A stretch of DNA of 64,000 bases, from assembly GCA_016182565.1 (NCBI GenBank), contig JACPGI010000003.1:70206-134205 (forward strand). The letters run 5' to 3'. Both the position numbers and the translations under genes were made by a program. This document shows positions 1,657-50,963 of this stretch, piece after piece (the stretch's first letter is position 1; each line of letters begins with the position of its first letter). Source of the stretch: a candidate division WWE3 bacterium (GTDB taxonomy: Bacteria; Patescibacteriota; WWE3; UBA101185; UBA10185). The notes below the pieces were generated by a model. That model searched no databases, was not told the origin of the DNA, and saw only the letters and a program-made list of their open reading frames with translations.

Positions 1657-1661
1657 TAGTT

Positions 1662-10110: not shown

Positions 10111-10161
10111 AAATAGGGATAGTTGTGTTTGGAATTTCCAACAACTATCCCTTGCTTTGTT

Positions 10162-11866: not shown

Positions 11867-12493
11867 ATGAGTAAAAATAGAAAAATATTATTTGCAACCA
11901 CTAACGAAAACAAAATAAAAAGAATTCAGAAGTTAATAAGAGATTTAGACATAGAGTTACTAACCCTCTCAGATATTCCAGAAAAGATCGATGAGCCGAA
12001 TGAATTTGGAGAGAATGCTGTGGAAATAGCCAAAAACAAAGCAATTTACTATTGGGAGGCGACTGGTAAAAAAATGCCGGTTCTTACCCAGGATGATACT
12101 ATGGACTTTTTGGGGAATGTTTCACCGGAGGATGATCCAAAAACTGCAATTAAGGAACCTGTTGTAAAAGCGTTTGGAGAGTACTCAATATCTAATGCGA
12201 TAGCCTATTACTCGAAGCTTGCAGAAAGATATGGTGGTGAAATTGACTTTGCATTTAGATACGGACATGGTTTTGTAAGTGAAGATGGGGCTAAAGGTGC
12301 TAGTTCTTCATTGTATGCCAAGCTTGTGAAAGACCCAAAGGGCATAGATAAAGTGGGTAAATATCCTTTACGTGCATTAACTAAACTTAAGATTGGGAGT
12401 AATTATGTTTATTCCGAAGACTCTACAGAAGAAGAAAAAGTTACAGCAGACTCTGATATTAAACGTGCTTTAGTTGAGTTACTTTGTTCTTAA
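11867..12493 (+). CDS. Ham1/RdgB-like non-canonical purine NTP pyrophosphatase (divergent)
   Basis: N-terminal KILFATTNENKIKRIQ...EPNEFGENAVEIAKNKA...PVLTQDD follows the ITPase pattern (KIVFATGNxGK...E.g.tf.eNA..KA...PvlADDSGL). The C-terminal half is divergent. Confidence 0.5.
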   Translation: MSKNRKILFATTNENKIKRIQKLIRDLDIELLTLSDIPEKIDEPNEFGENAVEIAKNKAIYYWEATGKKMPVLTQDDTMDFLGNVSPEDDPKTAIKEPVVKAFGEYSISNAIAYYSKLAERYGGEIDFAFRYGHGFVSEDGAKGASSSLYAKLVKDPKGIDKVGKYPLRALTKLKIGSNYVYSEDSTEEEKVTADSDIKRALVELLCS

Positions 12494-13263
12494 TTACCTG
12501 TATTTTCGTGCTTATTTCTGGAATTAAAATATGCACAATAGTCACAGTCTATATTCGCTTCGGGAATAGTGTTGGAGTTCAGACACTTTTTAATATCCAG
12601 TAGTTTATTTTCAATCCAGCTATCGTTTCCTTTATATTCTATGAGGGTCATTTCAAATTCAAGCTTGCCGTCGAATGTCTGCTTTTCAGTGTTGCCGTTG
12701 CAGTACACAAAATATCCACTTTCGCGGACTTTATACCCATTTTGCCTTAACAGCCACTGATAAACTTCCATTTGCCTTTTATAACCTTCGTGCCAATCTT
12801 TATCTAGTTGAGTTATTTCCTCGCTCTTACTTGTAGCTTTGTAGTCTACAACTATATATTCACCTTTTGAGTTTATCCACAGGTCGTCTAACGCCCCAAA
12901 AACATACAAATTTGTGGGTTTATGAAAAAACTGAATTCCCTTAAAATTATCTCTCCAAGTATCAAGATCTTTGTGGCTGGCCGGTTTTGCGTCAACTTTG
13001 TACTTAGCTATTAAAGGATGTTGCGTATCGCCTGTGCGATATGTATCAAACTCTTTTTTCAGTAAATGGTCTACAGCGCTGTTTAGGGCAAAAGGATATC
13101 CTGGGGGTCTACCTGTCCCCAATACCCTATCCAAATAGAAACATCTTGGGCAATCTATAAACAAGTCTATTTTTGACCTACTTAACTTAAATGGTTCTTT
13201 TGAATCCTTGAAATATAGGTATTTATCGGTTTTTTGCGAGTTATAGTATTTGCTCATATTCAT
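12490..13263 (-). CDS. Cas4/RecB-family PD-(D/E)XK nuclease with Cys clusters
   Basis: Motifs GALDDLW (D), EYIVVDYKAT (ExK) and QMEVYQWLL (RecB QxxxY) are present, with an N-terminal CPRC and a C-terminal C...CDYC consistent with an Fe-S/Zn site. There is no CRISPR context. Confidence 0.7.
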   Translation of the reverse strand: MNMSKYYNSQKTDKYLYFKDSKEPFKLSRSKIDLFIDCPRCFYLDRVLGTGRPPGYPFALNSAVDHLLKKEFDTYRTGDTQHPLIAKYKVDAKPASHKDLDTWRDNFKGIQFFHKPTNLYVFGALDDLWINSKGEYIVVDYKATSKSEEITQLDKDWHEGYKRQMEVYQWLLRQNGYKVRESGYFVYCNGNTEKQTFDGKLEFEMTLIEYKGNDSWIENKLLDIKKCLNSNTIPEANIDCDYCAYFNSRNKHENTGN

Positions 13264-13277
13264 CTGCTACTAATTTA

Positions 13278-14441
13278 TTAGCGATTTCCCTTAGCTCTAT
13301 TATGCGTTTTGCACAGCATTTGACAATTTTTATTAGTCGTTGCCCCACCTTTGCTCCATGCTGCTACATGGTCAGCATCCATTTCATTGAATTCCCAAAT
13401 TTTGCTGTTATTGGCATCGTGTCCAATAGTACAAAGTGGACAATTTGATATGTCTTTAGCTCTGGCGGTATCTGTCTGCATTGTATATACCGATTTTTTC
13501 GTTGCCTCATCAAACACACGGACCTCTAACAATTTTGTGTCTATAGAATTTCCTAGAATATACTCAAAAATACCTTTACGATTTTTAACATAGGGGTCGC
13601 TATAAAGCTTGTGTACTTCTTTTGATACTTTCACAGGATCATAGGCTTTTTTATGATACTGTTCATACAGTCGTCCCCACTCGAGACTGCGCATTTCACT
13701 TTCCACATCGACAAAAGTGCCCGATATCCAATCTAACACCGTGTTGAAATAGGTTTTTAATTCACTAATGCTTTTATCGTAACGATGACGACTCATGTAG
13801 TCCCCAATACTACCCTTGCTAACCCAATCTAAAGCTTGTTCCAAAAATTCCTGTCTGTTGGCGCTGCCTTTTATGTAAACGCCCCACTTTTGGATGTTTG
13901 CGTTTTGGCTGTTACTAAACTCTTCTTTGCATAATGTTACGAACGGACCAGAATACACTGCATTCAACAATTCTTGTTCGTTTAGCGGGATCCCTGCAAT
14001 ATTAATTGTTTTAAACCACTCTTTTATCTCGCTTTCAGTACCCTCACATTCATAGATGAGTAATGTAGTTTCCAAAATTTTGATTTGTTTGTCCTTAGCG
14101 ATACCGCTAAAATACTGTTCCATGCCGTTTTCATCTTTGATGGCAAATTTGTTAGTAACAAACCTACCTATGCTAGTGATTCGTTGTTGTCCGTCAAGAA
14201 CTTCAAATTTAGCCTCATTTACTTTTGTAAAATAAATTAAACCTATTGGGTACCCTTTTAGAATGGATTCAATGACAGCAACATCTTTTTTGCCATCAGC
14301 ATATATATAGTTACGTTGATACTCGGGTTGGATTGTGAGTTTACCTGATAGTCCGAACAGCCCTTTTCCTTCGAGTTCATTGTAAACGAACCCTTCGCAT
14401 ATATTTTTAATTGAAATACTTGTATTTAATGTTGTTTTCAT
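13278..14441 (-). CDS. GmrSD-like type IV restriction enzyme (DUF262 ParB-like NTPase plus C-terminal HNH)
   Basis: The N-terminus has the DUF262 signature IQPEYQRNY...LDGQQRITS. The C-terminus has the HNH motif [12 protein letters not shown]...[15 protein letters not shown]. Confidence 0.75.
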
Positions 14442-15532
14442 TTTGTTACTCGCTTTCTTACAAATAATCTTTTATAAACTTCTTTACCCTTCAAATAAGA
14501 CCCTCTGCCATAAATATTGTTAGGATCTTGGTTAACACCACGATTTGATCCTAAAATCTCAAATTGTTTGGGATTATATTTATCTAAAAAGCTAACGGGT
14601 ACACCCATCACCCCCTTATAGTCACAGGGAATGCATTTAACAGTAGAAACTTCTATCGCATTGTAATTATCATATTTTTCAAACGGTTTTTTAGTAACGA
14701 ACTTTATTATATCTGCTTCGGTCATTAATGATAAAAATTCGTGAAGTCGCCCATGGTCTAAATTTGTAAACCAGCGAACGCCTTGAACTCTAGTTATAAA
14801 TACCTTTTCTCCATTTTCATTTGTTCTTATTTCTCTTACTTGCTCTAAGTTGGCAATATTCTCTGGTATCTCATAAAACATAGCACCTCCATTAATTTTA
14901 TAGTTGTTGCCAAGCCAAACTCTATTGTCTTTGATCAGCGGGAAAACTTCTATGTATGTAATTGCGTTTAAATTACCTATAAGCAGAAATTGTTTTTTAG
15001 CTTCCACAATCCAAGCTAGAAATTCGCGGAATAAAGAAAAAGGAGGATTTGTGATAATAATGTCTGCTTCGTTACGTAGTTTCTTAAGCTCGTCACTGCG
15101 GAAATCCCCATCACCTTCAAGGTAGTGCCATTCAAGATCTTCGATATTAACCTTTCCGTCGCTAGTATTATCTTTTGTTAAAGTAAATATTTTTCCGTTA
15201 CTAATAGTTTTATTTGCATCATAAAGTGGGTTATTTGTTTCGAAAAGTGTTGGTTGATAAGAGCTTTTATAGTTTTTACTCTTTGTTGCGTAACTGGTGC
15301 TTATTAACTTTTTTATGCCAAAGCGTTCGAAGTTTTGAGCAAAATACTTAGTAAAGTTACTCCATTCTGGATCATCGCACGGTAGTAATATAGTTTTATT
15401 GCGAAAAATATCGGGGTTGTACTCTATATAAGCGGAAACCTCTTTCTCTATATCAAAATATTGAGTATAAAACTCATCATTTTTAGCAGCCTTTGCTAAC
15501 TGCAATTTCTTATTTGCAAATTCATTTTTCAT
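14438..15532 (-). CDS. M.EcoRI-family N6-adenine DNA methyltransferase
   Basis: N-terminal [22 protein letters not shown]...[13 protein letters not shown] closely matches M.EcoRI (SDEFYTQYCDIENELQYY...CNCDDP). The catalytic motif [10 protein letters not shown], is present. The start was moved to the internal Met ([10 protein letters not shown]) that aligns with the M.EcoRI N-terminus. Confidence 0.8.
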
Positions 15533-15621
15533 TGTCGTAGTGGTTTTAGAGAATAGAAACCAATGAAGGTCATCCATTCTCCGTGCAACCTTTCGGTAAC
15601 ACACATACTCTTTCGAGCATG

Positions 15622-22853: not shown

Positions 22854-22950
22854 CTATGTATAATTTATATGGATACATATGCAAAGATAGTGAAATGGCC
22901 GAATTGGTCTTATATCTTTGCGGATGTATCCAACCAGTTCGGCCATTTTT

Positions 22951-24576
22951 ATGGAAATAAATAGAAACCTTACAGGCTTAAAAGCCATTGAATACAACCG
23001 CAAAAGCTCGGAAGACGAGGAACGCCAAATCGCGTCTCTTGAAGATCAACATGCAGAAAATCAAAAAGTGATTGAAAGACATCAACTTAAAGTTGCAAAG
23101 TGCGACATTATTGAGGAATCTAAATCAGCCAAGAAACCTGGGCGACCGAAGTTTAATAAAATGGCTGAAGATATTGCTAATGGCAAGTATCAGGTTATTG
23201 TGTGTTGGCAGGCAAACCGTTTAGCTCGTAATTCTCGTGATGCTGGTGAAATCATTGGCTTACTTTCCGATAAAAAACTAATAGCAATCGTTACTCCTGG
23301 TAAGATTTACTATAACGGTGGTGAGGACAAACTTCTTCTTTATATCGAATTTGGTATGAGTGAAAAATACAGCGATGACTTATCAGCAAATGTTATTCGC
23401 GGTATGACTTCGAAAGTTGGTAGAGGTTGGTGGCCTGGTAGACCAAAAGTAGGTTATGTAAACATTAAATATGACGGTGAGGAACCTGTTCAGATTATAG
23501 ACGAACAAAGGTTTCCGCTACTCCGCAGAGCGATAGACCTATTTTTAGATGGTAATCACACGGCACCCCGCGTTTTAGAAATATTAAATGACGAGTGGGG
23601 TTTTAAAATGCGAAAAACCAAAAGAACCGGTGGTGGGAAGATGAGCAAAGGTAAGTTTTACAGCTTTTTATCCGACCCTTTTTACTATGGAAAATTGATT
23701 TGGGGCAAAGAGATTGGGGATGTTCATAAAAACCTGAAGCGACTCCTGAGTGAGGACGAGTTTTGGAAAGTACAGGCTCTTATGGGTAAACGCGGACAAG
23801 CAAGACCAAGTGTACATACCAAACTGCCGTTTAGAGGCCTAATTAAGTGCGGTGAGTGCCAAAGCACTTGGATTCCTTATGCTAGACCTAGGCAAACGGT
23901 TGATGGTAGCTTTAAACTGTACGAATATATTAGGTGTAACCACGACGGGATAAGTAAAAAATGTACACAAAAACAAGTAACTATCCAAGAAATTGAGAAA
24001 CAGGTTTTGGAGTTGTTGGACCAGATAACAATCTCGGAGGACTTCTGTAATTGGGCAATTGATTGGATTAAAAAGCAGCATCAAACAGAATCAAGCGCAC
24101 AACTACAAATACTCAAAAATCTTGAAAGTTCTTTGGAACAAATCCAAGGCCGCAAGAATAAGTTAGTAGAAATGTATATGGATAGCCTGTTAGACGGACA
24201 AGCAGACTATAAGAAACGCAAAGCGGATTTGGAAAAAGAGGAACAAGATATACAAAAGGAATTAAACGCCTTGAAAACCAGAACAAACAACTGGATGGAT
24301 TTGGCTATTAAAACCTTCAACTTTGCAAAGAACGCCCGCTATCACTTTGAACATGGAACATTTGAGGATAAGACTTTGATACTTCGCACACTCGGCTCGA
24401 ACTTTTACATGCTTAACGGGAAACTGTGTGTTGACCTAATAAAACCCTTCTTTATTTTCAAAAACAATCAGGATTTAGTAAATGTGCCTTTTGAAACTAT
24501 TGAAAACCCAGAATACGCCGACGTTATGGCCGGAACTGATGATCTTGAACATTGGTTTTTAAAATGGTCGGGGTAG
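22951..24576 (+). CDS. Large serine recombinase (integrase)
   Basis: The N-terminal catalytic domain has YNRKSSEDEERQIASLEDQ and ANRLARN. A recombinase domain and a zinc ribbon (CGECQ...C) follow, then a coiled coil. The stop codon overlaps the 3' end of tRNA-Pro. Confidence 0.8.
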   Translation: MEINRNLTGLKAIEYNRKSSEDEERQIASLEDQHAENQKVIERHQLKVAKCDIIEESKSAKKPGRPKFNKMAEDIANGKYQVIVCWQANRLARNSRDAGEIIGLLSDKKLIAIVTPGKIYYNGGEDKLLLYIEFGMSEKYSDDLSANVIRGMTSKVGRGWWPGRPKVGYVNIKYDGEEPVQIIDEQRFPLLRRAIDLFLDGNHTAPRVLEILNDEWGFKMRKTKRTGGGKMSKGKFYSFLSDPFYYGKLIWGKEIGDVHKNLKRLLSEDEFWKVQALMGKRGQARPSVHTKLPFRGLIKCGECQSTWIPYARPRQTVDGSFKLYEYIRCNHDGISKKCTQKQVTIQEIEKQVLELLDQITISEDFCNWAIDWIKKQHQTESSAQLQILKNLESSLEQIQGRKNKLVEMYMDSLLDGQADYKKRKADLEKEEQDIQKELNALKTRTNNWMDLAIKTFNFAKNARYHFEHGTFEDKTLILRTLGSNFYMLNGKLCVDLIKPFFIFKNNQDLVNVPFETIENPEYADVMAGTDDLEHWFLKWSG

Positions 24577-24641
24577 CAGGACTCGAACCTGCGGCCTCGC
24601 GAACCCGAATCGCGCGCTCTAGCCAACTGAGCTACACCCCG
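24565..24641 (-). tRNA. tRNA-Pro (anticodon CGG)
   Basis: A manual fold of the reverse complement gives a 7 bp acceptor stem (CGGGGTG/TACCCCG), a D-arm, an anticodon stem CGCGA/TCGCG with loop TTCGGGT, a T-arm GCAGG-TTCGAGT-CCTGC and an encoded CCA. Confidence 0.85.
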
Positions 24642-29408: not shown

Positions 29409-29487
29409 TGGTCGGGGTGACAGGACTCGAACCTGCGAATTCTCCGAACCCCCAGCTCGGCGCTTTAGCCAACTAAGCTACACCCCG
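29409..29487 (-). tRNA. tRNA-Pro (anticodon GGG), with an atypical 7 nt variable region
   Basis: The reverse complement CGGGGTGTAGCTTAGTTGGCTAAAGCGCCGAGCTGGGGGTTCGGAGAATTCGCAGGTTCGAGTCCTGTCACCCCGACCA folds as a cloverleaf. The anticodon loop is CTGGGGG and the variable loop AGAATTC contains GAATTC. Confidence 0.7.
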
Positions 29488-31907: not shown

Positions 31908-32546
31908 TTAAGCTTTAAAAAGTGTAATCGAAAACATTTTGCGATCTTGGCCAAAAGCAAGTTTTTTGCCCCAAGTGGTTTCGATTTCAGAAAGTTCTTC
32001 TTTTTCTATTTTTTCTACCTTTTCAAGCTCTAGCCCAAGTTTGTTAAATGCAGGTACTATCACTTCTTTAATTCTTTTAGCGTCTATACTATCAAGCGAA
32101 AGTCTATCCGTCTGTGTAGGCTCGGCCTCAGAGGAGTAACCAAATATGATTTGCAGAATTCCATTTGTTTCAAGCCCTAAAACTAAATTTTTCAATAAAT
32201 CTATTTGTGCGTTTGCAATACCACCTAGTAAACTTCCCCAAGGGAAATGTACATATATCTTATCAAACATATTTTCTAGCTCTATTGGAAAAATCTCTAT
32301 TGACCCAAGTATTAAAAGTGTGTTTCTTAGCCTGAATTTATTGATTTTTTTTGAATAAATTTCAAGTTGTTTTTGGTTTGGATCAAGACCAACATAAAAA
32401 ATATGTGGATTCTGCTGCGCATTTTTAAAAACAAAGCGGCCATCCCCCGTACCTATATCCAAGATTTTTTCACTAAAATTTTTGCAAAGTTCTTTAAAAC
32501 CTTTTGCATCTAAATCTTTGATTTTTGATCCTTGAACGACTTTCAT
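31908..32546 (-). CDS. Class I SAM-dependent methyltransferase
   Basis: Motif I is ILDIGTGDGRFVF. The start was moved to the internal Met (MKVVQG). Confidence 0.55.
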   Translation of the reverse strand: MKVVQGSKIKDLDAKGFKELCKNFSEKILDIGTGDGRFVFKNAQQNPHIFYVGLDPNQKQLEIYSKKINKFRLRNTLLILGSIEIFPIELENMFDKIYVHFPWGSLLGGIANAQIDLLKNLVLGLETNGILQIIFGYSSEAEPTQTDRLSLDSIDAKRIKEVIVPAFNKLGLELEKVEKIEKEELSEIETTWGKKLAFGQDRKMFSITLFKA

Positions 32547-32553
32547 ATGTAAA

Positions 32554-33441
32554 TTGTACAATACACACATGCAAAATTTTCCAATAGAGTTAAATGGGGT
32601 GATTCCTGTGTGGCAAGAGATGGGAAATTCTACAAACATAATAGCTAAAAAACTTGCGCAGAAACTAGGGGTTTTAACCTCACATACAGGCACACTTGAC
32701 CCAATGGCAAGCGGAGTGGTGATTGTACTTTCGGGTGAAGTGCGTAAAGAAAAATACGAACTTGCTAGGTGGAAAAAAACTTATGAGTTTGAGGTAGTGT
32801 TTGGAATTGCTACAGATACTTTTGATGGACTAGGTTTAATAACAAATGTCGATAAAAAGATTTTTGAAAATAATTTTTTACAAAATATTAATTTAAACAA
32901 GTTACATTTGCAAAATTTTATAAAAAATTTGGAGCAAAGTTTACCGGAGTTTATAGGTGAATATACTCAGACTGTTCCTGTATACTCGTCTGTAAAATTT
33001 AAAGGTAAACCGCTTCACTACCATGCAAGAAATACTTTTATTGAAAAAGATCATAATGTTGATAACATAATCTTGCCAACTAAAAGTGGTCAAATTTTTG
33101 CTTTAAAAATTTTAAAAAGTTCTACCCAAACTTTACAAAAAATAATAAGTAAAATTATTTTTAATATAAATTTAGTTAAAGGAGATTTTAGACAAGATGA
33201 AATCATTGAGTCTTGGAATAAATTTTTAGTAAAGTGTGAGAACAAAAATATAAAATTAGAGTTGCCCGTGGTTAGATTCAAAGTCGAAATGACAAAAGGT
33301 TTGTATGTAAGATCTTTAGCTACAGATATTGCCCAGAAATTAAATACATATGGGTTTGTGTATGATCTTACTAGGACTAAAAACGGAAAATATTCAAAAA
33401 AAGATTGTTTAACTCTTGAATTATTGAAACTTACCCTTTAA
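32554..33441 (+). CDS. truB: tRNA pseudouridine55 synthase TruB (with insertions)
   Basis: It carries HTGTLDPMASGVVIVLSGE, the TruB catalytic Asp motif. Confidence 0.75.
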   Translation: MYNTHMQNFPIELNGVIPVWQEMGNSTNIIAKKLAQKLGVLTSHTGTLDPMASGVVIVLSGEVRKEKYELARWKKTYEFEVVFGIATDTFDGLGLITNVDKKIFENNFLQNINLNKLHLQNFIKNLEQSLPEFIGEYTQTVPVYSSVKFKGKPLHYHARNTFIEKDHNVDNIILPTKSGQIFALKILKSSTQTLQKIISKIIFNINLVKGDFRQDEIIESWNKFLVKCENKNIKLELPVVRFKVEMTKGLYVRSLATDIAQKLNTYGFVYDLTRTKNGKYSKKDCLTLELLKLTL

Positions 33442-41549: not shown

Positions 41550-41797
41550 ATTGTCTTTCTTAAATTTATAAATATATTTATACCTATCTATATTAGTTTC
41601 AACTTAAACTTAAGTCAAGGTTGTAGTAGTGGTATGGGAAGCCTCATACAATAAGTGTTAATTTTGTTATTGTTAGAGTTACTGAAATTTCTCTTAATTC
41701 ACAACCTATAGCCCACATAATATAGGTCTTTACATCCTATAATATATTATCTATTGTGCCATTGCGTGCTAGCAGTAATTTTTTTGTAAAAGGACAC

Positions 41798-44700
41798 ATG
41801 TACTATAAAAACAAAACTAAGAGGTTAATTGCCTCCGTAGCTCTTTTATCTCAAATGGTTTACACTGTAAATCCCTTTGTTTACGCGTATATTTCATATT
41901 CTATAAATTCAAAAGCATTAGCTCAAGAAGTTACAGATATAGCTTCTGACACTGTAGTGTCACAGGAAACGATAAATTCCCAAAATACTTTAAATACTGA
42001 AAGCGATGCAGAAACTAGCTCAAACTTTGAAAGTTCCATCCCCACAAATGAACCTATAGTGGAGGAATTTTTATCTTCAAATCTTATGGATGTAGACACC
42101 GAAGTTGTTGACCAAGGCTCTGAGGGTGATGTTTTACCTGTTGTTACAGGAGTAACTATTCCAGAAGTAACGCCACAAGTAGAGGCAAACCAGACAGAAG
42201 AGATTATAGTTGCTGAGCCCTCTTCAGGTATTGAGGTACAAGAAACAAAACCAGAAGTTCAGATACCTAACACTATTGAGAGTTCAACCGAAACTACTGA
42301 TGACAGCCCAGAAACAAATGCAGTAGTAGAGTCAAGTTTTTCATCCGGTGAAATTTTAGATAGTGGCTCTACAAGTGTTAGAACAACATCCGAACCTTCT
42401 GACTTTATAGATGCCAAAGAGCAGGTTAATGGTATGGAATGTCTTGATACTGAGGCTTCTATAATTACCTCTACCACAGATATGTGGGAAGTCGATTCTG
42501 CGACAAATACTGCAAAGACAAAAGGGGATGTGCAAACAGGTATTAGATATGAATTTCCTCTAAATAAAGATGTAGCGGTTACATTTACCTGTCTACCAAA
42601 AGATACCCAAGAATTGTCCAGTTTAAAAATTCAACAAGTTAAAGTAAGCGAATTGAATTTACCAAAAGGAACAACTACCTCTGTTGAGTATGCCTATGAT
42701 ATTACATCAGATATGCCAAATGGTAGTTTTGAATATGAAGTAGTATTACCAAAACCTATATTGACTACAACCGAACTTATATATATAGAGAAATCTATAG
42801 ATGATGCTACAAACGAAGATTTAGTAAAATCCGATCTTAAAAAAGTTTCAAGTGTGCAAATTGAACAAACCAAAAACCTTTTGACTGCCTCTGAGTTAAA
42901 TCATTTTACAATCTTTTTAATAGTAGACGGAACTAATATCCCGGATTTTAGTAATGATTGGTTGGATTTTTATGACACCTTAGGTAATCTTGTTACCGAT
43001 GTTGAGGATGGTAAGTTAGGTATGAATGATGAAAGTAATGGCGGTACAAATGTCACACCAGCCGAAATTGATATTGGTTCCGCAGTTGATATAAGTGGGA
43101 CAAATTCCGGTAATCAGTCTTCTTTACAATATTACTATGAGGATAACAATACCGGTGGTACTTGTTCAGATGACACCTTATTTTTACGAATGAGGCTTGA
43201 GGGAAATCCGGAGGCATCTGGTAATTCAGGTTCCGCTTACTCTTCCTATCACTGGGATTTTCTATTAGATGCAAATAATAACGGTACAAGTGATTTTGTT
43301 ATTGATGTATTTGGAGGTAAAACAAATTCATTTGACTCGTCTGAGGGTGGGCAGTCAGGTTCCATCGGTCTTTATCCAAATGATGCAAATTCAACCTCAT
43401 ATACAACAGATAATGTTTTGTGGACAGCAAGAGCTGATGATGGATCAAACTTATACACTCAAGTTGAAAAAGATGATTATGGTGATGCTATAGCCAGTAA
43501 CGATCAATTTTGGATGGAAGCTGCTGTACCATTAAATGTAAACGCAGCTTTTCAGGCAGCAGTTTGTAATTTAACCGACTTAGATGGCTTAGTATTTGCT
43601 TCAACTTCAACTTCAAATACTGATCCACTACAGAAGGATTGGATGAATCCAGTGGGCTTTTTCACTTCTCATGTAGAACATAAGAGTGTTGAGAACCTTA
43701 CAAACGCAGGTGCTACTACAGTTTTAGATCCAGCTGCGGCGGGGGACATAATAGAATACACATTATCTGTCACAAACGACGGTACAAGGGAAATTCCCGG
43801 TTTTATCTTTTCAGATGATATTTCAGACATTTTAGCTTACGCAACATTAGTAAATGGTGATACTGATGGTAATGGTAAAACAGGTACTGTAGTAAGTAAT
43901 ACCATTTCTTGGCCACAACAAGATATTGCAGTTGGCCAGACTCTAACTGAACAATTTAGCGTCCAGATAAATTCGGCTTCCTTGTGGAATGGTACGGACT
44001 TTACAATGACAAATGTTTATGGAGATACGGTAAATGTTTATCTTCAAAGTTATGGTTATGTAACAGTAAATAAAATTGTAATTGCACACGGTGCTTCAAA
44101 AGTCGCCGCTGATTTTGGTCCATTTAAAGTAGGAGATACCACTGTAACACTTGGTGAAACTACTGCATTTCCAGTTGGTACATACACAATATCAGAAACA
44201 ACTGATGCAAATTACATAGCAAGTTTTAGTAACGATTGTCCAAATGGTGAAGTCACTGTAACAGTAAACTCTACTGCTGCATGTACTATCACAAATGAGC
44301 GAATTGTTATAAATCCAAAAATTACTTTAATAAAAGAAGTTATAAATGATAATGGTGGTACTGCCACATCAAACGATTTTGGTTTGTCTATTGGTGGTAC
44401 AAGCGTTACATCAGGTCAAACTGTAGAAGTAACTGCAGGTACACCAGTTGCTTTAAATGAGGTCGGTCTTACTGGTTATAGCTTTGTATCTATGACTGGT
44501 GCAAATTGTCCTTCAAACTTAGGTGATAGTGTAACTCTTGCTGAAGGCGATGATATTACTTGTACTATTACAAATGATGATGTTGCCCCACTTCTTACCG
44601 TAACCAAAGTTGTTGTAAATGATAACGGCGGAACAAAACAAGTTTCTGATTTCCCACTTTTTGTTGATACTACTCAAGTAACAAGTGGAGTTCAAAATGG

Positions 44701-47700
44701 ATTTAATACCGGATCTTATACAGTAAGTGAAACTTCTATAAATGGTTACACCTCAACCTTTTCTGGTGACTGTGATGCACAAGGCCAGGTAAGCTTAAGT
44801 TTAGGTAATGTTAAGACTTGTACTATTACAAATGACGACGTCGAACCACTTCTTACCGTAACCAAGGTTGTTGTTAATGACAACGGTGGGGTTAGTGTTG
44901 TAAGTGACTTTAACCTATATGTAGATTCCACACAGGTATCAAGCGGAGTCCAAAATGGCTTTATTGCTGGTAACCACACAGTAAGCGAGGCAAATAATAC
45001 AGAGTATACTGGTACAATTTCTGGAGATTGCTCAGCTGATGGTTCTATTACACTTGAAGTTGGTGACGTAAAGACCTGTTTAATTACAAATGACGACCGA
45101 ATTGCCAATTTGACAGTTAAAAAAGTTGTAATAAACGATAATGGTGGGGATAAAGAACCATCTGACTTTTCATTTAGTGTAAATGATGGACCTTCAGTAG
45201 CTTTTGAAGCTGATGGTGAGAATGTCTTAGCAGTAAATGCAGGCACATACAGCGTAGTTGAAGAAAATGCTCAAGGCTACACCACAACTTACGATAATTG
45301 CTCAAACATAGTTTTACCAAACGGTGGAAGTGCAATTTGTACAGTAACTAATGACGATCAACCTGGTACTTTAATTGTTAAAAAAGTTGTCGTAAACGAT
45401 AACGGGGGAAACAACGAAGTAACCGACTTTTCATTTACTGTTAACAGTGGTGATGCGATTGCATTTGAAGCTGACGGTCAAAATGATATAACAGTAGATG
45501 CTTCTATATATTCAGTAGAAGAAGTAGCCACAGCTGGCTACGATGCAACCTATGATAATTGTATAAGAGTTTCTATTCCAAACGGTGGAAGTGCAACTTG
45601 TACAATTACAAACAATGATATTGCTCCATCACTTACTCTTACCAAAGAAGTTATAAATGACAACAACGGTACTGCTACAGCCAATGACTTTGGATTATCC
45701 ATTGGTGGAGTCTCTGTAACTTCCGGACAAAAATTAACCCTTAACGCAAACGAGGCTTACGCTCTAAACGAAGTAGGTCTTTATGGTTACACATTTAAAG
45801 AAATAACAGGGGATGCAAAATGCCCTGCTGTACTTGGCGGAGAAATAACACTTGCTGAGGGTGATGACCTAACTTGTACCATAGTAAACGACGACGTTGC
45901 TGCAAAACTTACAGTCACAAAGATTGTAGAGGGTGGCACAAATCAGGTTTCTGACTTCCCATTATTTGTAGATGCTACATCTGTAACAAGTGGTGAAACA
46001 AATGAATTTAATCAAGGTTCATACACTGTAAGTGAAACCAACCAAACTGGTTACACTGGAGTTATTTCAGGTGATTGTGATGCTAATGGTTCAATTACTC
46101 TAAACGTTGGGGATACAAAAGCTTGTACCATAACAAACACAAGAGATACCGGTACCATTAAAGTTACAAAAATTGTTGATTCCTACCTGAATGATAGTTC
46201 CACTTGGGATATCACAATCTCTGGTCCTACAAACAATTATGATACCTTAGCTAATGGAGAATCTACTTCCGCTTTTGTATCTGACACTGGTAGCTATACA
46301 ATTTCTGAAACAGCTCACACCGGTACAAACGGCGGTGACTATACAAGTACATACGAATGTAAAGATGGTGAAAATACCTTGGAGCTTGGAAATGGTATTG
46401 GTACAGAAATTACAGGATTAAATCTTGAGAAGAACCAAGATGTGGAATGTACCTTCACAAACTCTGTCAAAAGAGGATCTATAACTATAGTCAAAGATGC
46501 ACAGCCAGATTCAGAAGAGGACTTTAGATTCACTGCAAAGATTCCAAATCTCGATGATCTTGATTTCTATTTGGATGATGATGGCGATAACACAAATGAT
46601 TTATCCAATACAGAAGTGCTTTCCGATCTTTTGCCGGGCACCTATAACATTACAGAACCTCATATCCAATATTGGACACTTGAATCTGTAACTTGTGAGG
46701 GCGGATCTGATGCAAATGCTAACGAAAGAAATGCAGTTATCAAACTTCAACCAGGCGAAAACGTTACATGTACTTTTGTTAACACAATAAATAGAGGTAG
46801 TGTTACCGTAACAAAGTACCTTGATGAAAACGCAAATGGTACAAGAGATGAAGGTGAAGTTACACTTCCAGATTGGTTAATAAACCTTTCACACAAAGGT
46901 TCTGTTGATACATTGGTTACAAACTCTGATGGCCAAGTAACTTTCGAGAATTTGTTACCAAAAACCTATACATTAAGTGAGGATCTTTCTGAAGGTTGGT
47001 ATCAGTCCAATATCTCTTGTACAGGGGATACAGGAATTGATACTTCAAATGAGCACCAAGTGATAGTTAATCCAGAAGACCAAATTTCATGCGAAATAGG
47101 AAATTACCAAAATAGCGAAATAAAAGTTGTAAAAAGAATACTTAACCCACAAGGTGAGGAAGTCACTGATCTTACAACTGAATTCTTATTTGAACTAGCA
47201 GGTGTATTAGATGCTGATGAATTGACCGAAAATTTAGTAAGTGAGAATCTTGGTGATGATGAGTCTTTCACAACAAGTGTAAAACCAGGCACTTACCAAG
47301 TAACCGAAGTAGCTGATGCTAACTATGACTTTAAAGGTTGTAGTGCATTATATGAGGAAACAAGTGTTGGTGAATCAATTACAAATGGAAAAGTTGTAAC
47401 AGTTGGAAGTGGTGACAGAATTGTTATTACTTGCGACAACTGGCAAAAACCTTCAACAATAACAGGATCCAAGTGGGAAGATAAAGATCAAAGTTCCCAA
47501 AGAGATGAAAATGAACCACTTCTTCCAGATTGGACAATTTACATTGATACAAATGGAAATAGCAGCTTTGATGATGGTGAAGTTTCTACTAAGACAGACG
47601 AAAATGGAAACTATACATTTAATCTAAATCCAGGAACTTACAAGATTTGTGAAGTAATCCCATCTGAATGGATTCAAACTTACCCAGACTTTAATGACAA

Positions 47701-49459
47701 TCTAGACGATTTCCGTGAAGGGTCCCAAATTACCCAGAATAACTGTTATATATTAACTGTAGGCCCAAATGAGACCATAGGTGATAATACTTTTGGTAAC
47801 TTCCATGAACTCCCATCTCTTCTTATAAGCAAATTCAATAACAAGGGCGGCATTGACTTAAGGGTTGGTGACGAGGTCACTTACACAATAGAAGTTACAT
47901 CAAACGACTCAACTGCATATGGTGTTAAAGCAATAGACCTTTTGCCAAAGGGAATTAAGTATAAAGCCTCAAGTTACACTGCAAACTCCAGTGTTCGAGG
48001 TGATATCTCAGGTTTGGGTGAGCCTACCTACAATTCACCTGGTACATGGACACTGGGAGATTTAATAGCAGGTGAAATTGTTACCCTAACATATGTCGGA
48101 TTTGTTGAAGCTGGAACCGATGAAGGAACTTACAAAGATTTAGCATGGGCAGTTGCCTCTGAACAGGGTGTACTAGCATTAGCTGAAGAAGACGGGAATA
48201 AACTTGCCACAAACTTTGTAGGAACTGAGGTACAGGTTGTTAAGGATCCAGTAGTAGAGGATCTTAAAGTTGATGTTGGCGAGGATGAGAAGATAAAAGA
48301 AATTGGTGAGGTACTTGGTGCCTCCACATCACTTCCAGCAACAGGTTCCCCGACAAGCTTATTTGCTGCACTCTTGATCTGGTTAGTTTTAGGTTTAGGA
48401 GCACTTATGGTTACAAGAAAAAAATCAGTTAAATTACCAAATCCAAAAGTTTTATCGTTACTAAATATTTTTGCGGGCATTATAGTAGCATCATTTATAT
48501 TTACTCCAAGTGCTTCTGCTACTGCACCCAATAATTTATTTGTTAGATTAGAGGAGCCAAAAGCAACAACAAATGTAGACTTTAATCTATCTTTTGTTGC
48601 ACTCGATAGTGATAACAACAAAATAGAAGTTCAATGCTTCAAAAAAGGCCCATCTGATGGTGTCTCTTATGTTGCATTTGGTGCTCCGATCATCTTAAAT
48701 AATGGTGGGGATACTGGGATTTGTGAAGCTAAATCTACAAATATCCTTACAAATGACGGTAGTTACTGGTTTAAAGTATCTGCAAAAACATTGACTGAAA
48801 ATCCACTAGATTCTGTGACTTCGGAGTCTGAGGAATGGAAAGTTGACTATGATGGGAATGGCCCAGGAAAACCATTTGATATCGAAAAAGATAAAGATGG
48901 TAATTGTCAGTTTGAGCTCTCATTTAAGACTGCAAATGATGGTGAAACCTCATACGTAGAAATATATAGGGATGATGACAGAGAATTTACAGCTGATGCA
49001 ACTAAACTACATAAAACAATAAGTATTGGACCAAATACGTCTTATAAGTATGAGGATGATCTTTACGGCAGCGAGTGCGGTAAAAACTTCTACTATGGCG
49101 TAAGAGCTTTTGATGCAAACGGCTATGGTTCAGCTCTTGGACAAGAGGAGGATACTGAAACTACAAAAGAAGTAACTATAACCACCACTGAGACAAAAGA
49201 GGAAACAGGCGCAGTTCTTGGAGGCGGTTCTTCTATTGAGGTGGGTGGTGAAGAAAATGCAGATAGTGAAGTTGTATTACCAGGAGACGTTTTAGGTGAA
49301 TCCGATAAAGGTAATGCCACTGAAGATAACGAGTCGATAAATGGAGGTGTGTTGGGAAGTGCTATTTCTAAGCTTAAAAACCCTAAAGTTATTGGCCTTC
49401 TTATTGCGGCTTTGTTACTGTTAGCATATGGCTATTACAGAGCTAAAAAATCCAAGTAA
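41798..49459 (+). CDS. Giant (about 2,550 aa) surface protein with tandem beta-sandwich repeats, Cna-B/SdrD-B-like and DUF11 domains, an internal LPATG sorting signal and a C-terminal membrane-anchored FN3-like region
   Basis: It has a signal peptide MYYKNKTKRLIASVALL. About seven near-identical 85-90 aa repeats follow (LTVTKVVVNDNGG...CTITNDD). Cna-B-type motifs are present (LPDWTIYIDTNGN...GEVSTKTDENGNYTF). A DUF11-like domain is present (GDEVTYTIEVTSN). LPATG is followed by a hydrophobic stretch and RKK at nt 48332-48420. The ORF then continues in frame for 350 aa and ends with a TM segment plus RAKKSK. Confidence 0.8.
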   Translation: MYYKNKTKRLIASVALLSQMVYTVNPFVYAYISYSINSKALAQEVTDIASDTVVSQETINSQNTLNTESDAETSSNFESSIPTNEPIVEEFLSSNLMDVDTEVVDQGSEGDVLPVVTGVTIPEVTPQVEANQTEEIIVAEPSSGIEVQETKPEVQIPNTIESSTETTDDSPETNAVVESSFSSGEILDSGSTSVRTTSEPSDFIDAKEQVNGMECLDTEASIITSTTDMWEVDSATNTAKTKGDVQTGIRYEFPLNKDVAVTFTCLPKDTQELSSLKIQQVKVSELNLPKGTTTSVEYAYDITSDMPNGSFEYEVVLPKPILTTTELIYIEKSIDDATNEDLVKSDLKKVSSVQIEQTKNLLTASELNHFTIFLIVDGTNIPDFSNDWLDFYDTLGNLVTDVEDGKLGMNDESNGGTNVTPAEIDIGSAVDISGTNSGNQSSLQYYYEDNNTGGTCSDDTLFLRMRLEGNPEASGNSGSAYSSYHWDFLLDANNNGTSDFVIDVFGGKTNSFDSSEGGQSGSIGLYPNDANSTSYTTDNVLWTARADDGSNLYTQVEKDDYGDAIASNDQFWMEAAVPLNVNAAFQAAVCNLTDLDGLVFASTSTSNTDPLQKDWMNPVGFFTSHVEHKSVENLTNAGATTVLDPAAAGDIIEYTLSVTNDGTREIPGFIFSDDISDILAYATLVNGDTDGNGKTGTVVSNTISWPQQDIAVGQTLTEQFSVQINSASLWNGTDFTMTNVYGDTVNVYLQSYGYVTVNKIVIAHGASKVAADFGPFKVGDTTVTLGETTAFPVGTYTISETTDANYIASFSNDCPNGEVTVTVNSTAACTITNERIVINPKITLIKEVINDNGGTATSNDFGLSIGGTSVTSGQTVEVTAGTPVALNEVGLTGYSFVSMTGANCPSNLGDSVTLAEGDDITCTITNDDVAPLLTVTKVVVNDNGGTKQVSDFPLFVDTTQVTSGVQNGFNTGSYTVSETSINGYTSTFSGDCDAQGQVSLSLGNVKTCTITNDDVEPLLTVTKVVVNDNGGVSVVSDFNLYVDSTQVSSGVQNGFIAGNHTVSEANNTEYTGTISGDCSADGSITLEVGDVKTCLITNDDRIANLTVKKVVINDNGGDKEPSDFSFSVNDGPSVAFEADGENVLAVNAGTYSVVEENAQGYTTTYDNCSNIVLPNGGSAICTVTNDDQPGTLIVKKVVVNDNGGNNEVTDFSFTVNSGDAIAFEADGQNDITVDASIYSVEEVATAGYDATYDNCIRVSIPNGGSATCTITNNDIAPSLTLTKEVINDNNGTATANDFGLSIGGVSVTSGQKLTLNANEAYALNEVGLYGYTFKEITGDAKCPAVLGGEITLAEGDDLTCTIVNDDVAAKLTVTKIVEGGTNQVSDFPLFVDATSVTSGETNEFNQGSYTVSETNQTGYTGVISGDCDANGSITLNVGDTKACTITNTRDTGTIKVTKIVDSYLNDSSTWDITISGPTNNYDTLANGESTSAFVSDTGSYTISETAHTGTNGGDYTSTYECKDGENTLELGNGIGTEITGLNLEKNQDVECTFTNSVKRGSITIVKDAQPDSEEDFRFTAKIPNLDDLDFYLDDDGDNTNDLSNTEVLSDLLPGTYNITEPHIQYWTLESVTCEGGSDANANERNAVIKLQPGENVTCTFVNTINRGSVTVTKYLDENANGTRDEGEVTLPDWLINLSHKGSVDTLVTNSDGQVTFENLLPKTYTLSEDLSEGWYQSNISCTGDTGIDTSNEHQVIVNPEDQISCEIGNYQNSEIKVVKRILNPQGEEVTDLTTEFLFELAGVLDADELTENLVSENLGDDESFTTSVKPGTYQVTEVADANYDFKGCSALYEETSVGESITNGKVVTVGSGDRIVITCDNWQKPSTITGSKWEDKDQSSQRDENEPLLPDWTIYIDTNGNSSFDDGEVSTKTDENGNYTFNLNPGTYKICEVIPSEWIQTYPDFNDNLDDFREGSQITQNNCYILTVGPNETIGDNTFGNFHELPSLLISKFNNKGGIDLRVGDEVTYTIEVTSNDSTAYGVKAIDLLPKGIKYKASSYTANSSVRGDISGLGEPTYNSPGTWTLGDLIAGEIVTLTYVGFVEAGTDEGTYKDLAWAVASEQGVLALAEEDGNKLATNFVGTEVQVVKDPVVEDLKVDVGEDEKIKEIGEVLGASTSLPATGSPTSLFAALLIWLVLGLGALMVTRKKSVKLPNPKVLSLLNIFAGIIVASFIFTPSASATAPNNLFVRLEEPKATTNVDFNLSFVALDSDNNKIEVQCFKKGPSDGVSYVAFGAPIILNNGGDTGICEAKSTNILTNDGSYWFKVSAKTLTENPLDSVTSESEEWKVDYDGNGPGKPFDIEKDKDGNCQFELSFKTANDGETSYVEIYRDDDREFTADATKLHKTISIGPNTSYKYEDDLYGSECGKNFYYGVRAFDANGYGSALGQEEDTETTKEVTITTTETKEETGAVLGGGSSIEVGGEENADSEVVLPGDVLGESDKGNATEDNESINGGVLGSAISKLKNPKVIGLLIAALLLLAYGYYRAKKSK
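44320..46140 (+). repeat. Tandem coding repeats (about seven units, 255-270 nt period) inside the giant surface protein gene
   Basis: Repeated peptide blocks start with (L/K)LTVTKVV(V/I)NDNGG and end with C(T/L)ITNDD. Adjacent units are highly similar. Confidence 0.7.
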
Positions 49460-50144
49460 GTTAACCCCTTTTACAAATAAGCCAGCCCTCTTTTGGGTTG
49501 GCTTATTTTTGGTTCTTGTATCTTTGTTAGGTATATCTTTAATATTTGCTCCAATTATAAAAAACGAAATTAAGTACATGAGTATGCAGCGAGATGCAAT
49601 AAAGAATGATGGAAATAATGGAGCAACCTCAGGAGGATCTAACTTACCCAATTTATCAAAAAAACCCATTGTCGCTGTGGATGAAAACTTCAGTATAGTT
49701 ATTCCAAAAATTGGGGCTAACTCAAAAGTTATTGAGGAAGTTGATTACAGAATTTCCAGCGAGTATCAAAAGGCATTATCCCAAGGGGTTGCACATGCTA
49801 AAGATACACCAAGTCCAAAAACAGCATCCATGGCTGGCGAAGGAAATACTTTTCTCTTTGCCCATTCATCTGACAGCTTTTTTACAGCAAATCAGTATAA
49901 TTCGGTGTTTTACCTTTTGACAAAGCTTAAAACCAATGATTATTTCTATATAGCTTTTGATAAGAAACTTTATAAATACGAGATTATCGAAAAAAAGATT
50001 GTTTCGGCTAGTGAGATTAAGTATTTATCAAAAATTGATGAAATAGATGGTAAAAAGGTTGGTGTCACCGCAACTTTAATGACATGTTGGCCCGCTGGAA
50101 CTACATATAAAAGGCTTGTTGTTGTAGGAAAACTTGTAAACTAG
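49428..50144 (+). CDS. Sortase (class A/E-like transpeptidase)
   Basis: An N-terminal TM anchor is followed by His in FLFAHSSD, the catalytic TLMTCWP (TLxTC) and Arg in YKRLVVVG. The gene overlaps the end of the LPATG protein gene. Confidence 0.75.
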   Translation: MAITELKNPSKLTPFTNKPALFWVGLFLVLVSLLGISLIFAPIIKNEIKYMSMQRDAIKNDGNNGATSGGSNLPNLSKKPIVAVDENFSIVIPKIGANSKVIEEVDYRISSEYQKALSQGVAHAKDTPSPKTASMAGEGNTFLFAHSSDSFFTANQYNSVFYLLTKLKTNDYFYIAFDKKLYKYEIIEKKIVSASEIKYLSKIDEIDGKKVGVTATLMTCWPAGTTYKRLVVVGKLVN

Positions 50145-50213: not shown

Positions 50214-50963
50214 ATGAACAAATACAAATTTCTAACTTCAATACTGCTTATTCCACTTTTAGCCTTCTCATTTAGTTTTTTTGTTTACGCTGAGGAGGAT
50301 AACGACAACGAAGAAGAACAGACTGTATCCAGTAATGAGGATACAGAAGATGATGACAATTCCTCAGATTCGAATGAAGAGGAGGATAGTGATGAAGACG
50401 CCGATGAGCCAAAGTCTTACCGTGAAAAGATGGAGGAGAGATGGGGAACTAAAGAGCTAAAGCTTGAGCAAAGAAAAGAGGAACTCAAGCAACGCTTAGA
50501 GGAGAAAAGAGATGATGTTATTGAAAGACGCTGTGAAGAAGTAGTCAGTAGGGTTACTAAACGAATTACCCAGTACAATAAAAATGTAGGAGTTCATATT
50601 GATAATTACACTAGACTGTACGAAAGGTTAGATGAAATTACCAAAAAACTTGCTGCAAAAGGCTATGACGTAGCTAAATTGGAAGCCGACATGGTGGTTT
50701 TGGACAATATGGTAAATGATTATGCCGGTATCTATGCCGGTTTTATTGCTCAACTTACCGAATCTCAGAGCTTGGCTTGTGGAGAATCTGAAGGAGCATT
50801 TAAGCAGTTACTCCAAGATGCAAGAATGCAGTTGAAGGCTGCGATTGAATCAAGACAAGAAATACGATACTACTATGAGCATACAATAAGGCAGGATATA
50901 AAAGATATTAGGGAGCAAAAAGTTGATGATAGTTCCAAGGTAGGAGGAGTTGACGATGAATAA
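50214..50963 (+). CDS. Secreted acidic coiled-coil hypothetical protein
   Basis: A signal peptide MNKYKFLTSILLIPLLAFSFSFFVYA is followed by a D/E/S-rich low-complexity stretch. Confidence 0.35.
   Translation: MNKYKFLTSILLIPLLAFSFSFFVYAEEDNDNEEEQTVSSNEDTEDDDNSSDSNEEEDSDEDADEPKSYREKMEERWGTKELKLEQRKEELKQRLEEKRDDVIERRCEEVVSRVTKRITQYNKNVGVHIDNYTRLYERLDEITKKLAAKGYDVAKLEADMVVLDNMVNDYAGIYAGFIAQLTESQSLACGESEGAFKQLLQDARMQLKAAIESRQEIRYYYEHTIRQDIKDIREQKVDDSSKVGGVDDE

Follow-up and report, generated by a model that had tools for sequence, protein, structure and literature searches.

The DNA analyzed here is a stretch of 64,000 nucleotides (nt) from a candidate division WWE3 bacterium (contig JACPGI010000003.1 of assembly GCA_016182565.1, positions 70,206 to 134,205; hereafter the window), and our subject is its giant open reading frame (ORF) at 41756..49459, in which an LPATG sorting signal is followed in frame by a second exported, membrane-anchored module. 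On sequence evidence, this ORF and the sortase gene behind it are the fused version of a three-part cassette that is conserved in Microgenomates and WWE3 (Patescibacteria) and consists of a SpaA/DUF11 adhesin, a membrane protein of ~320 amino acids (aa) and a sortase. The ~320-aa membrane protein of the cassette begins with a signal peptide, after which come two FN3-type domains, a stalk with VLG motifs, a transmembrane (TM) helix and a basic tail. We consider it probable that the fused product is a membrane polyprotein from which sortase, and probably also signal peptidase I, would generate three pieces: the sorted adhesin, a discarded TM hairpin and a tandem-FN3 protein anchored in the membrane.

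An internal sorting signal joined to a predicted second export signal

The giant frame, like the other features described below unless a minus strand is given, lies on the forward (+) strand. It comprises 2567 codons from a GTG, without interruption in the ORF list and its translation, and the corresponding NCBI protein (MBI2414399.1; 2553 aa from ATG 41798; candidate division WWE3) is named only 'DUF11 domain-containing protein'. An independent Logan assembly (run SRR12113420, locus L083) holds the same 7704-nt ORF with 9 substitutions, none of them near the junction of the two modules, where 261 nt are identical in both. An alternative genetic code was rejected as the cause of the open frame, which is open under table 11.

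The N-terminal segment (MYYKNKTKRLIASVALL...SKALA|QE, 41798..41923) is a putative Sec signal peptide; it looks like one by eye in the translation, and its hydrophobicity lies under the KD threshold of 1.6. The passenger, or adhesin shaft, contains an array of SpaA-type prealbumin-fold (CnaB-like) repeats with approximate bounds 44033..47815, in which SpaA_2 of Pfam matches eight stretches (E = 2.2e-57) and SpaA, SpaA_3 and SpaA_4 match as well. The final folded domain of the passenger, next to the sorting signal, is a DUF11-type beta-sandwich (47843..48247), matched by TIGR01451 at aa 2036-2078, modeled by AlphaFold2 with a predicted local distance difference test (pLDDT) score of ~90, and also conserved in fused homologues (aligned in P0001-P0006).

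The initial annotation, made from the letters of the window alone, had described a sorting signal of LPATG, hydrophobic helix and RKK after about 2,190 residues, and all three elements are present. The LPATG pentapeptide (48332..48346, aa 2193) is the sole LP.TG of the giant protein and directly follows a VLGASTS motif (48311..48331; family consensus G(E/Q)VLGAST). The hydrophobic segment of the sorting signal, TM1 (48359..48412, predicted to run from outside to inside), has its peak at LFAALLIWLVLGLGALMVT (48359..48415) with a KD19, the hydrophobicity peak measure used for TM segments, of 2.48; it is helical in the AlphaFold2 model and is followed by TRKK. The frame then continues, as had been claimed, without a stop into a segment that resembles a signal peptide and ends in ASA. 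The basic loop RKKSVKLPNPK (48416..48448), predicted to be cytoplasmic, has two roles: it completes the sorting signal as its positive tail and opens the next segment as its n-region. This second hydrophobic segment (48449..48520, predicted inside to outside), also a helix in the model, peaks at VLSLLNIFAGIIVASFIFT (48449..48505; KD19 = 2.29) and ends in PSASA. Taken together, 48416..48520 has the layout of an internal signal peptide, with a positive n-region (RKKSVKLPNPK), an h-region (VLSLLNIFAGIIVASFIF) and a c-region (TPSASA) with small residues at -3 and -1; the signal peptidase I site is predicted between A2255 and T2256 (nt 48520|48521).

Beyond this site the chain contains a beta-sandwich region of ~200 aa that includes YYGVRAFDANGYGS. 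It is a tandem pair of FN3-type domains (48536..49141) with four near-invariant Cys and two predicted disulfides, as indicated by AlphaFold2, Foldseek and family conservation. A disordered stalk rich in Thr, Gly and Glu follows (49142..49387; pLDDT <50), with three VLG motifs within 49214..49360 (GAVLGGG, GDVLGES and GGVLGSA), and the protein ends in TM3 and the basic tail RAKKSK (49388..49456; hydrophobic peak 49388..49444), the C-terminal helix and tail that had been annotated, which form a membrane anchor devoid of LPxTG. The LPATG is thus followed by 370 in-frame residues, 345 of them after the basic tail (to 49459), and it does not occupy the C-terminal position expected of sorting signals; in the same window, the ORF at 6945..7616 ends 32 aa past its LPKTG. 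An AlphaFold2 model of the last 538 residues reproduces this order: DUF11 sandwich, disordered VLGAST-LPATG, helix 171-195, 5-residue loop, helix 201-219, two FN3 domains, disordered stalk and terminal helix.

Fused and two-gene cassettes across genomes

Searched with the last 419 residues, the databases returned 12 relatives, some of ~320 aa with a signal peptide of their own; the longer ones had LPxTG, TM helix, basic tail and module in one chain. A profile of the 212-aa core was then run against 1.84 billion cluster representatives and gave 447 proteins at E <= 1e-30. Family counts rest on 155 representatives, a protein being taken as fused when its module lies >110 residues from the N terminus; the fused architecture is found in 99 of the 155. 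In 98 of these 99, an [LM]PxTG stands within 100 aa upstream of the module, most commonly as LPATG (54), LPSTG (18) or LPGTG (12), and a [VIL]LG precedes LPxTG within 14 aa in 93 of 98 (consensus G[EQ]VLGAST). The geometry of the junction in 98 fused proteins is regular as well: the median lengths are 24 aa for TM1, 8 aa for the basic loop and 25 aa for the second segment with its c-region, and the loop has a median net charge of +4 (minimum +2). The [AVSTI]xA site before the module is present in 98 of 99 fused and in 50 of 52 stand-alone members, compared with 16% of random 11-mers from the same proteins. The conservation of the LPxTG and AxA motifs suggests that both cleavages are still in use.

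The genomic setting was examined in a scan of one genome per GTDB species, which yielded 80 loci; nearly all belong to Microgenomates-type Patescibacteria or to WWE3, and a few bear the label Moraniibacteriota or Saccharibacteria. Many loci (among them L004, L013, L017 and L025) come from metagenome-assembled genomes titled 'uncultured Gammaproteobacteria', 'Pseudomonadales' or 'Thermodesulfobacteriota bacterium' that carry the Patescibacteria-type cassette; their sequences cluster with Microgenomates, one of them is named HK-STAS-PATE-15, and the organism names of the titles look wrong. Frames were read from the DNA at 82 loci, namely the window, L002, L001 and 79 distinct GTDB loci; L001 is a duplicate of L010, so that 81 of the 82 are distinct. 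The module is fused to the adhesin in 42 of the 82 and is encoded by a separate small gene in the other 40. A homologous sortase lies directly downstream in 77 loci, and the contigs of the other five end within ~250 nt of the ORF.

The separate state has a compact layout of its own. In 36 of the 40 loci the gene just upstream ends with LPxTG, TM helix and basic tail, and in 27 of these 36 the ATG of the small gene overlaps the upstream stop by exactly 8 nt (ATGnnTAA). The adhesin gene stops 4-6 codons past its Arg-Arg tail, and the codons of this tail (AGGAGG, AGGAGA or CGGAGG) also provide the FN3 gene behind it with a Shine-Dalgarno sequence (L009, L005, L019 and 24 others). In L052 and L077 both genes are in one frame, divided by a single TAA that abuts the ATG, and L055 has TAA TTT ATG; one indel or substitution would therefore convert one state into the other. 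Two-gene cassettes such as L002, L009 and L052 share with the window the order adhesin-FN3-sortase, the VLGAST-LPxTG and modules that are 35-45% identical; they differ in the adhesin stop, the Arg codons used as Shine-Dalgarno sequence and the 8-nt overlap, where the frames are joined in the window.

The distribution of the two states follows lineages. On a neighbor-joining tree of the concatenated FN3 module and sortase from 76 loci, the fused/separate character requires 4 changes, and 3-7 in ten bootstrap resamples, compared with ~26 for shuffled states. A tree from the 200-aa domain alone gives 24 changes; this number is treated as inflated by poor resolution, and the concatenated tree is preferred. 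Shapirobacteria, Roizmanbacteria, Woesebacteria, WWE3 and Moraniibacteriota are uniformly fused, and Gottesmanbacteria, Daviesbacteria, Levybacteria, Collierbacteria and Pacebacteria uniformly separate. The mutual identity among fused members is only 35-45%, which argues that the fusion has been maintained over a long divergence. On this tree the state is inherited along lineages and is not sporadic, and the fused and two-gene forms are, judged by their sequences, two stable natural states. The two, which are one in-frame stop apart in L052 and L077, offer a clean natural experiment on translational coupling versus gene fusion.

These comparisons support the single sortase-processed polypeptide that the initial annotation had called plausible, since the in-frame fusion recurs at the 42 loci and in the 99 representatives, and LPxTG, positive loop and adjacent sortase are retained with it. 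The same annotation had held that a stop between the RKK tail and the downstream signal peptide in orthologues would mean two ordinary adjacent genes. What the orthologues display is a conserved in-frame fusion in 42 of 82 loci and, in about half, a stop after the sorting signal, there in translationally coupled genes. An orthologue stop is not decisive, because the two-gene orthologues represent the second stable state and not an error in the window.

Constant across the family are the DUF11 domain, the sorting signal and the FN3 module. In L001, two sortase genes lie within 9 kb (1736..2275 and 10156..10818), and proteins with Peptidase_M73 (camelysin/TasA-like) and LTD domains are encoded upstream of a short (726 aa) fused substrate. 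Given diversity of this type, the passenger part is highly variable, and family members range from ~450 aa (partial sequences) to ~3090 aa.

Proposed processing and competing explanations

A sorting signal ends with its N terminus outside and its C terminus inside, followed by a positive tail, and a signal peptide begins with a positive n-region and inserts with its N terminus inside and its C terminus outside, in keeping with Sec export and the positive-inside rule. The two are topological complements that form a hairpin with a shared basic loop, which would explain why the fusion is tolerated; linking them in this way leaves the topology of both proteins as it was. In the processing that we propose, the N-terminal signal peptide would start Sec export of the ~2,190 residues of the passenger, TM1 would stop the transfer, and the second hydrophobic segment would re-initiate export, now of the FN3 module, which TM3 would anchor in the membrane. 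Sortase would cleave LPAT|G and transfer the adhesin to an acceptor, presumably a peptidoglycan precursor, and signal peptidase I would cleave after ASA (ASA|T). The mature products would be the same as those of the two-gene version, in a strict 1:1 ratio at one translocon, with a hairpin of ~55 aa left over. The three-TM membrane protein that had initially been foreseen as the end product is probably not reached: with [AVSTI]xA so widely kept before the module, the ~55-aa TM hairpin and a single-pass FN3 protein are expected. Since the products would be the same, the fusion may be close to neutral or of slight benefit (through a fixed 1:1 ratio and co-insertion at one site), which fits a character that flips rarely yet persists.

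The giant protein shares with canonical Gram-positive sorted proteins the LPXTG, hydrophobic segment and positive tail, a passenger of SpaA/CnaB and DUF11 domains and an adjacent His/TLxTC sortase, but its signal is internal and is followed by a second exported, membrane-anchored module. The literature that was searched in full text for internal LPXTG or sorting signals, for sortase polyproteins and for LPXTG in named lineages of the candidate phyla radiation (CPR) contained no description of this architecture, and the fused form is apparently undescribed. For the second cleavage, the nearest parallel lies in a handful of bacterial polyproteins with internal signal peptides, such as FbcH, the cytochrome b-c1 precursor of Bradyrhizobium japonicum, thought to be cut there by signal peptidase once translocation has been re-initiated. 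The giant ORF shares with it the coding of two membrane or exported proteins in one frame with a signal peptide between them; the protein families are unrelated and no sortase is involved in FbcH, whereas the window has a second site, LPxTG, one helix upstream, and three pieces are expected. If processed as proposed, the giant protein would be a naturally occurring membrane polyprotein of bacteria whose maturation depends on two different envelope peptidases. A complete sorting signal 370 residues from the end of its protein is, moreover, an arrangement stable across whole candidate phyla. Because sorting signals are defined and searched as C-terminal elements, motif-based predictions of the Patescibacteria surfaceome would mis-handle such proteins.

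Several points weigh against this polyprotein model. We infer the sortase cleavage, the signal peptidase I cleavage and the sortase acceptor alike, and the AlphaFold2 confidence for the helices of the hairpin is only moderate (pLDDT 50-70). Some FN3 protein may also be made on its own in WWE3, through an ATG with a Shine-Dalgarno-like sequence. Few cases are known in which bacterial signal peptidase I cuts at a signal peptide inside a longer chain. The acceptor is uncertain, given that a complete peptidoglycan pathway was not identifiable in one WWE3 genome (Kantor et al., PMC3812714); the window itself encodes FtsE, FtsX, a PcsB-like M23 hydrolase and UppS.

Among the alternatives, a nested gene survives best, although we regard it as unlikely. 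The FN3 protein of WWE3 would then be made mainly from ATG 48407, with MVTRKKSVKLPNPK... as an ordinary signal peptide and the read-through product as a minor or tolerated by-product. The AGGAG that had been annotated upstream of this ATG is in place (48397..48401) with a 5-nt spacer, so that a possible internal start occupies 48397..48409 inside TM1; the energy of its duplex with the anti-Shine-Dalgarno sequence is -6.5 kcal/mol. In L042, the sole other WWE3 locus, the corresponding position, immediately ahead of the shared basic cluster, has the stronger GGGGGTG-N10-ATG (-9.7 kcal/mol), and a Met lies within 3 residues of the loop in 60% of the fused relatives. The family as a whole speaks differently. 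Real starts of separate genes have a median of -8.6 kcal/mol, with 56% at or below -8, whereas the best in-frame ATG, GTG or TTG anywhere in the fused junctions has a median of -3.1 kcal/mol, with 2 of 42 at or below -8 (Mann-Whitney p = 2e-5 for separate versus fused). These best candidates are indistinguishable from the background of in-frame start-like codons in the passenger (median -2.2 kcal/mol), ~8% of which reach -6. No start candidate was returned for L003 and L067; the linker of L067 was mis-parsed, and L003 alone is clear. The Shine-Dalgarno sequence can also be mimicked by the codons of a Gly-rich TM segment (GGA G..), and an enrichment of Met in the loop was rejected as a sign of internal starts, as Met makes up 4.0% of the residues in TM1 and 4.5% in the loop. 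Because there is no stop between passenger and module, every ribosome that passes the 2,190-residue passenger enters the module; the polyprotein is made anyway, and additional internal initiation could not replace the read-through. On these energies, internal initiation is disfavoured for the family as a whole; in WWE3, the separate protein from ATG 48407 that was proposed at the outset may still be made.

It is also conceivable, but very improbable, that the LPATG is unused and that the giant protein stays an uncleaved three-TM protein displaying both passenger and FN3 module from the membrane. The classical acceptor might be missing, if the report on peptidoglycan in WWE3 (PMC3812714) applies here. 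Against this, the fused forms are deeply diverged and yet 98 of 99 preserve [LM]PxTG and 93 of 98 the VLGAST pre-motif; the sortase gene is adjacent and often overlaps, and the AxA site is kept too. Conservation of this kind is not expected of unused motifs.

Less credible still is a programmed -1 frameshift or transcriptional slippage on the A_AAA_AAA heptamer at 48418..48424, by which some chains would end in ...TRKKIS*, a canonical sorting signal, and the rest would be the fusion. The heptamer is a perfect zero-frame X_XXY_YYZ, and two codons further a TAA (48430..48432) closes the -1 frame; in-frame slippery heptamers are 2-3 times commoner in the loops than elsewhere in the ORFs (20 of 42 loci, versus ~0.2 expected per 30 codons). 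This enrichment is, however, explained by the coding of Lys-Lys (AAA AAA) in AT-rich genomes. Moreover, 22 of the 42 fused loci have no slippery heptamer, and a -1 stop falls within 6 codons at 10 of 20 loop heptamers as against 124 of 273 control heptamers. No stimulatory structure was seen, though no search aimed at one was made; the heptamer of the window is probably coincidental. Finally, an artefact of sequencing or assembly that erased a stop or shifted the frame between two adjacent genes, for which one base change would be enough since related two-gene cassettes differ by a single stop or an 8-nt overlap, is effectively refuted by the SRR12113420 assembly, whose identical junction, with the 9 substitutions elsewhere in the gene, makes a junction stop or frameshift unlikely, by the recurrence of the fusion at 30-45% identity in 41 more of the loci examined and 98 more of the family representatives, and by the agreement of the fused or separate state with phylogeny.

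The tandem-FN3 partner, the sortase and neighboring genes

The FN3-like label given initially to the C-terminal module holds at the level of fold (mean pLDDT 80; Foldseek E about 1e-7) and does not hold as a sequence match to Pfam fn3. Scanning of the C-terminal 350 aa of the window protein gave no Pfam or NCBIfam match for the tandem-FN3 core, and a relaxed Pfam scan of 52 relatives produced only scattered weak matches to Ig, PKD and fn3; 2 of the 52 touch fn3 (PF00041), at E = 0.037. In the AlphaFold2 model of the 350 aa, the signal/TM helix leads into the two beta-sandwiches (pLDDT >90); the disordered stalk (<50) comes next, and the terminal TM helix spans residues 326-349. The best Foldseek matches in the PDB are tandem FN3 pairs (Ihog, neogenin and DCC); these are generic tandem-FN3 matches and provide no functional lead. 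Judged by this model, the module is FN3-like by fold and is not a Pfam fn3 member by sequence.

In the family alignment four Cys are essentially invariant, one pair per FN3 domain, and the Lys of the inter-domain PxxYxK stretch is 94% conserved. The C termini carry a TM segment in 150 of 154 members and at least 2 Lys or Arg after it in 147 of 154, with no LPxTG; Gram_pos_anchor (PF00746) is weakly matched by three stand-alone members. VLG is enriched 18-fold in the stalks over the passenger (0.98 versus 0.055 per 100 aa) and occurs in the stalks of 119 of 154 members, recurring one to three times. The stalk VLG echoes the VLGAST pre-motif of the substrate. Many stalks carry GAIPV, and in some an IPVTG or IPVTN is found ~50 aa before the TM helix.

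The FN3 protein is most likely an accessory or partner of the adhesin-sortase pair. A bolder role, which we hold to be distinctly doubtful, would make it the acceptor or a non-cleavable pseudo-substrate of the sortase of its own cassette. As an acceptor, it would be joined to the threonine of LPAT through an amine, either the Lys of PxxYxK or the N terminus made by signal peptidase; the giant adhesin would be tethered covalently to a membrane stalk, instead of or besides peptidoglycan, and in fused forms sortase would cut and paste, excising the TM hairpin from a single chain. Compatible with this role, though none of them tests it, are the 1:1 coupling or fusion, the mimicry of VLGAST by the stalk VLG, the C terminus of the module, which is like a sorting signal lacking LPxTG, and the WWE3 peptidoglycan report (PMC3812714). 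Whichever role applies, the 447 representatives form a large unannotated family located between a giant adhesin and a sortase, in bacteria thought to live attached to other cells, and are a concrete target for the question of how CPR bacteria build their attachment surface.

The sortase gene (49428..50144; MBI2414400.1) overlaps the 3' end of the giant ORF, as was first noticed from the letters, by 32 nt. Its product has an N-terminal TM segment, matches Pfam PF04203 above cut-off (E = 6.6e-17) and TIGR01076 at 40.7 against a cut-off of 39.35, and contains FAHS at 144 and TLMTC at 216, with YKRLVV downstream, in line with the catalytic His, the Cys and the downstream Arg of sortases. None of the NCBIfam sortase class models reaches its cut-off, the best being class C (NF033745, 56.8 bits versus 160), and the sequence matches in the PDB permit no class assignment, as they are distant (E >= 3e-5) and spread over classes A, C and E. 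Sortase-assembled pilus operons of class C resemble the cassette in their SpaA-type repeats, LPxTG and adjacent dedicated sortase, and the best NCBIfam model is of that class; the cassette differs in having one giant substrate and not several pilin genes. A pilus system was rejected, since the giant protein lacks the pilin motif YPK, the sortase lacks a DP[WFY] lid motif, and the class C score is below cut-off.

Sortase is near-ubiquitous in Microgenomates (Méheust et al., PMC6744442), and a WWE3 genome with sortase and predicted sorted proteins has been described (Kantor et al., PMC3812714). Small membrane proteins genetically linked to sortases are also on record, namely SafA of Actinobacteria (PMC9282373) and the signal-peptidase-like pilus factors of the SipA/LepA type (PMC4049620). 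The FN3 partner is like these in being a membrane protein that neighbors a sortase and presumably acts on the sortase or its substrate, a functional analogy only. It has no kinship to them in sequence or fold, and it is a tandem-FN3 protein on a long stalk with a C-terminal anchor, encoded between substrate and sortase.

A second predicted sortase substrate, of 223 aa, is encoded at 6945..7616 and ends in LPKTG, a hydrophobic segment and TRRR before its stop; it has neither the VLGAST pre-motif nor a Pfam match. Its terminal LPKTG signal indicates that the sortase machinery of this genome is otherwise conventional. Directly after the sortase gene, 50214..50963 encodes a secreted-looking protein of 249 aa with a signal peptide, a very acidic stretch rich in Asp, Glu and Ser, and a helical domain; an LPxTG is absent, and none of the Pfam and NCBIfam models matches above cut-off.

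Elsewhere in the window, the operon at 30..2948 encodes FtsE (ABC_tran), FtsX (FtsX_ECD) and a PcsB-like protein with coiled coil and M23 peptidase, a peptidoglycan-hydrolase divisome module. A defence or restriction island at 12490..15604 (-) contains a PD-(D/E)XK nuclease, GmrSD_N with an HNH endonuclease, and an EcoRI-type adenine methyltransferase (E = 6e-117). Within 22918..24641, the gene of a large serine recombinase (Resolvase and Zn_ribbon_recom) has a 3' end that abuts or overlaps tRNA-Pro(CGG) on the opposite strand (24565..24641). Another proline tRNA, tRNA-Pro(GGG), is found at 29409..29487, and the arrangement may be the edge of an integrated element. At 31908..32693 (-), overlapping neighboring ORFs, is a homologue of the 16S rRNA (adenine1408-N1) methyltransferases of the NpmA family (E = 3e-50), which are known for aminoglycoside resistance.

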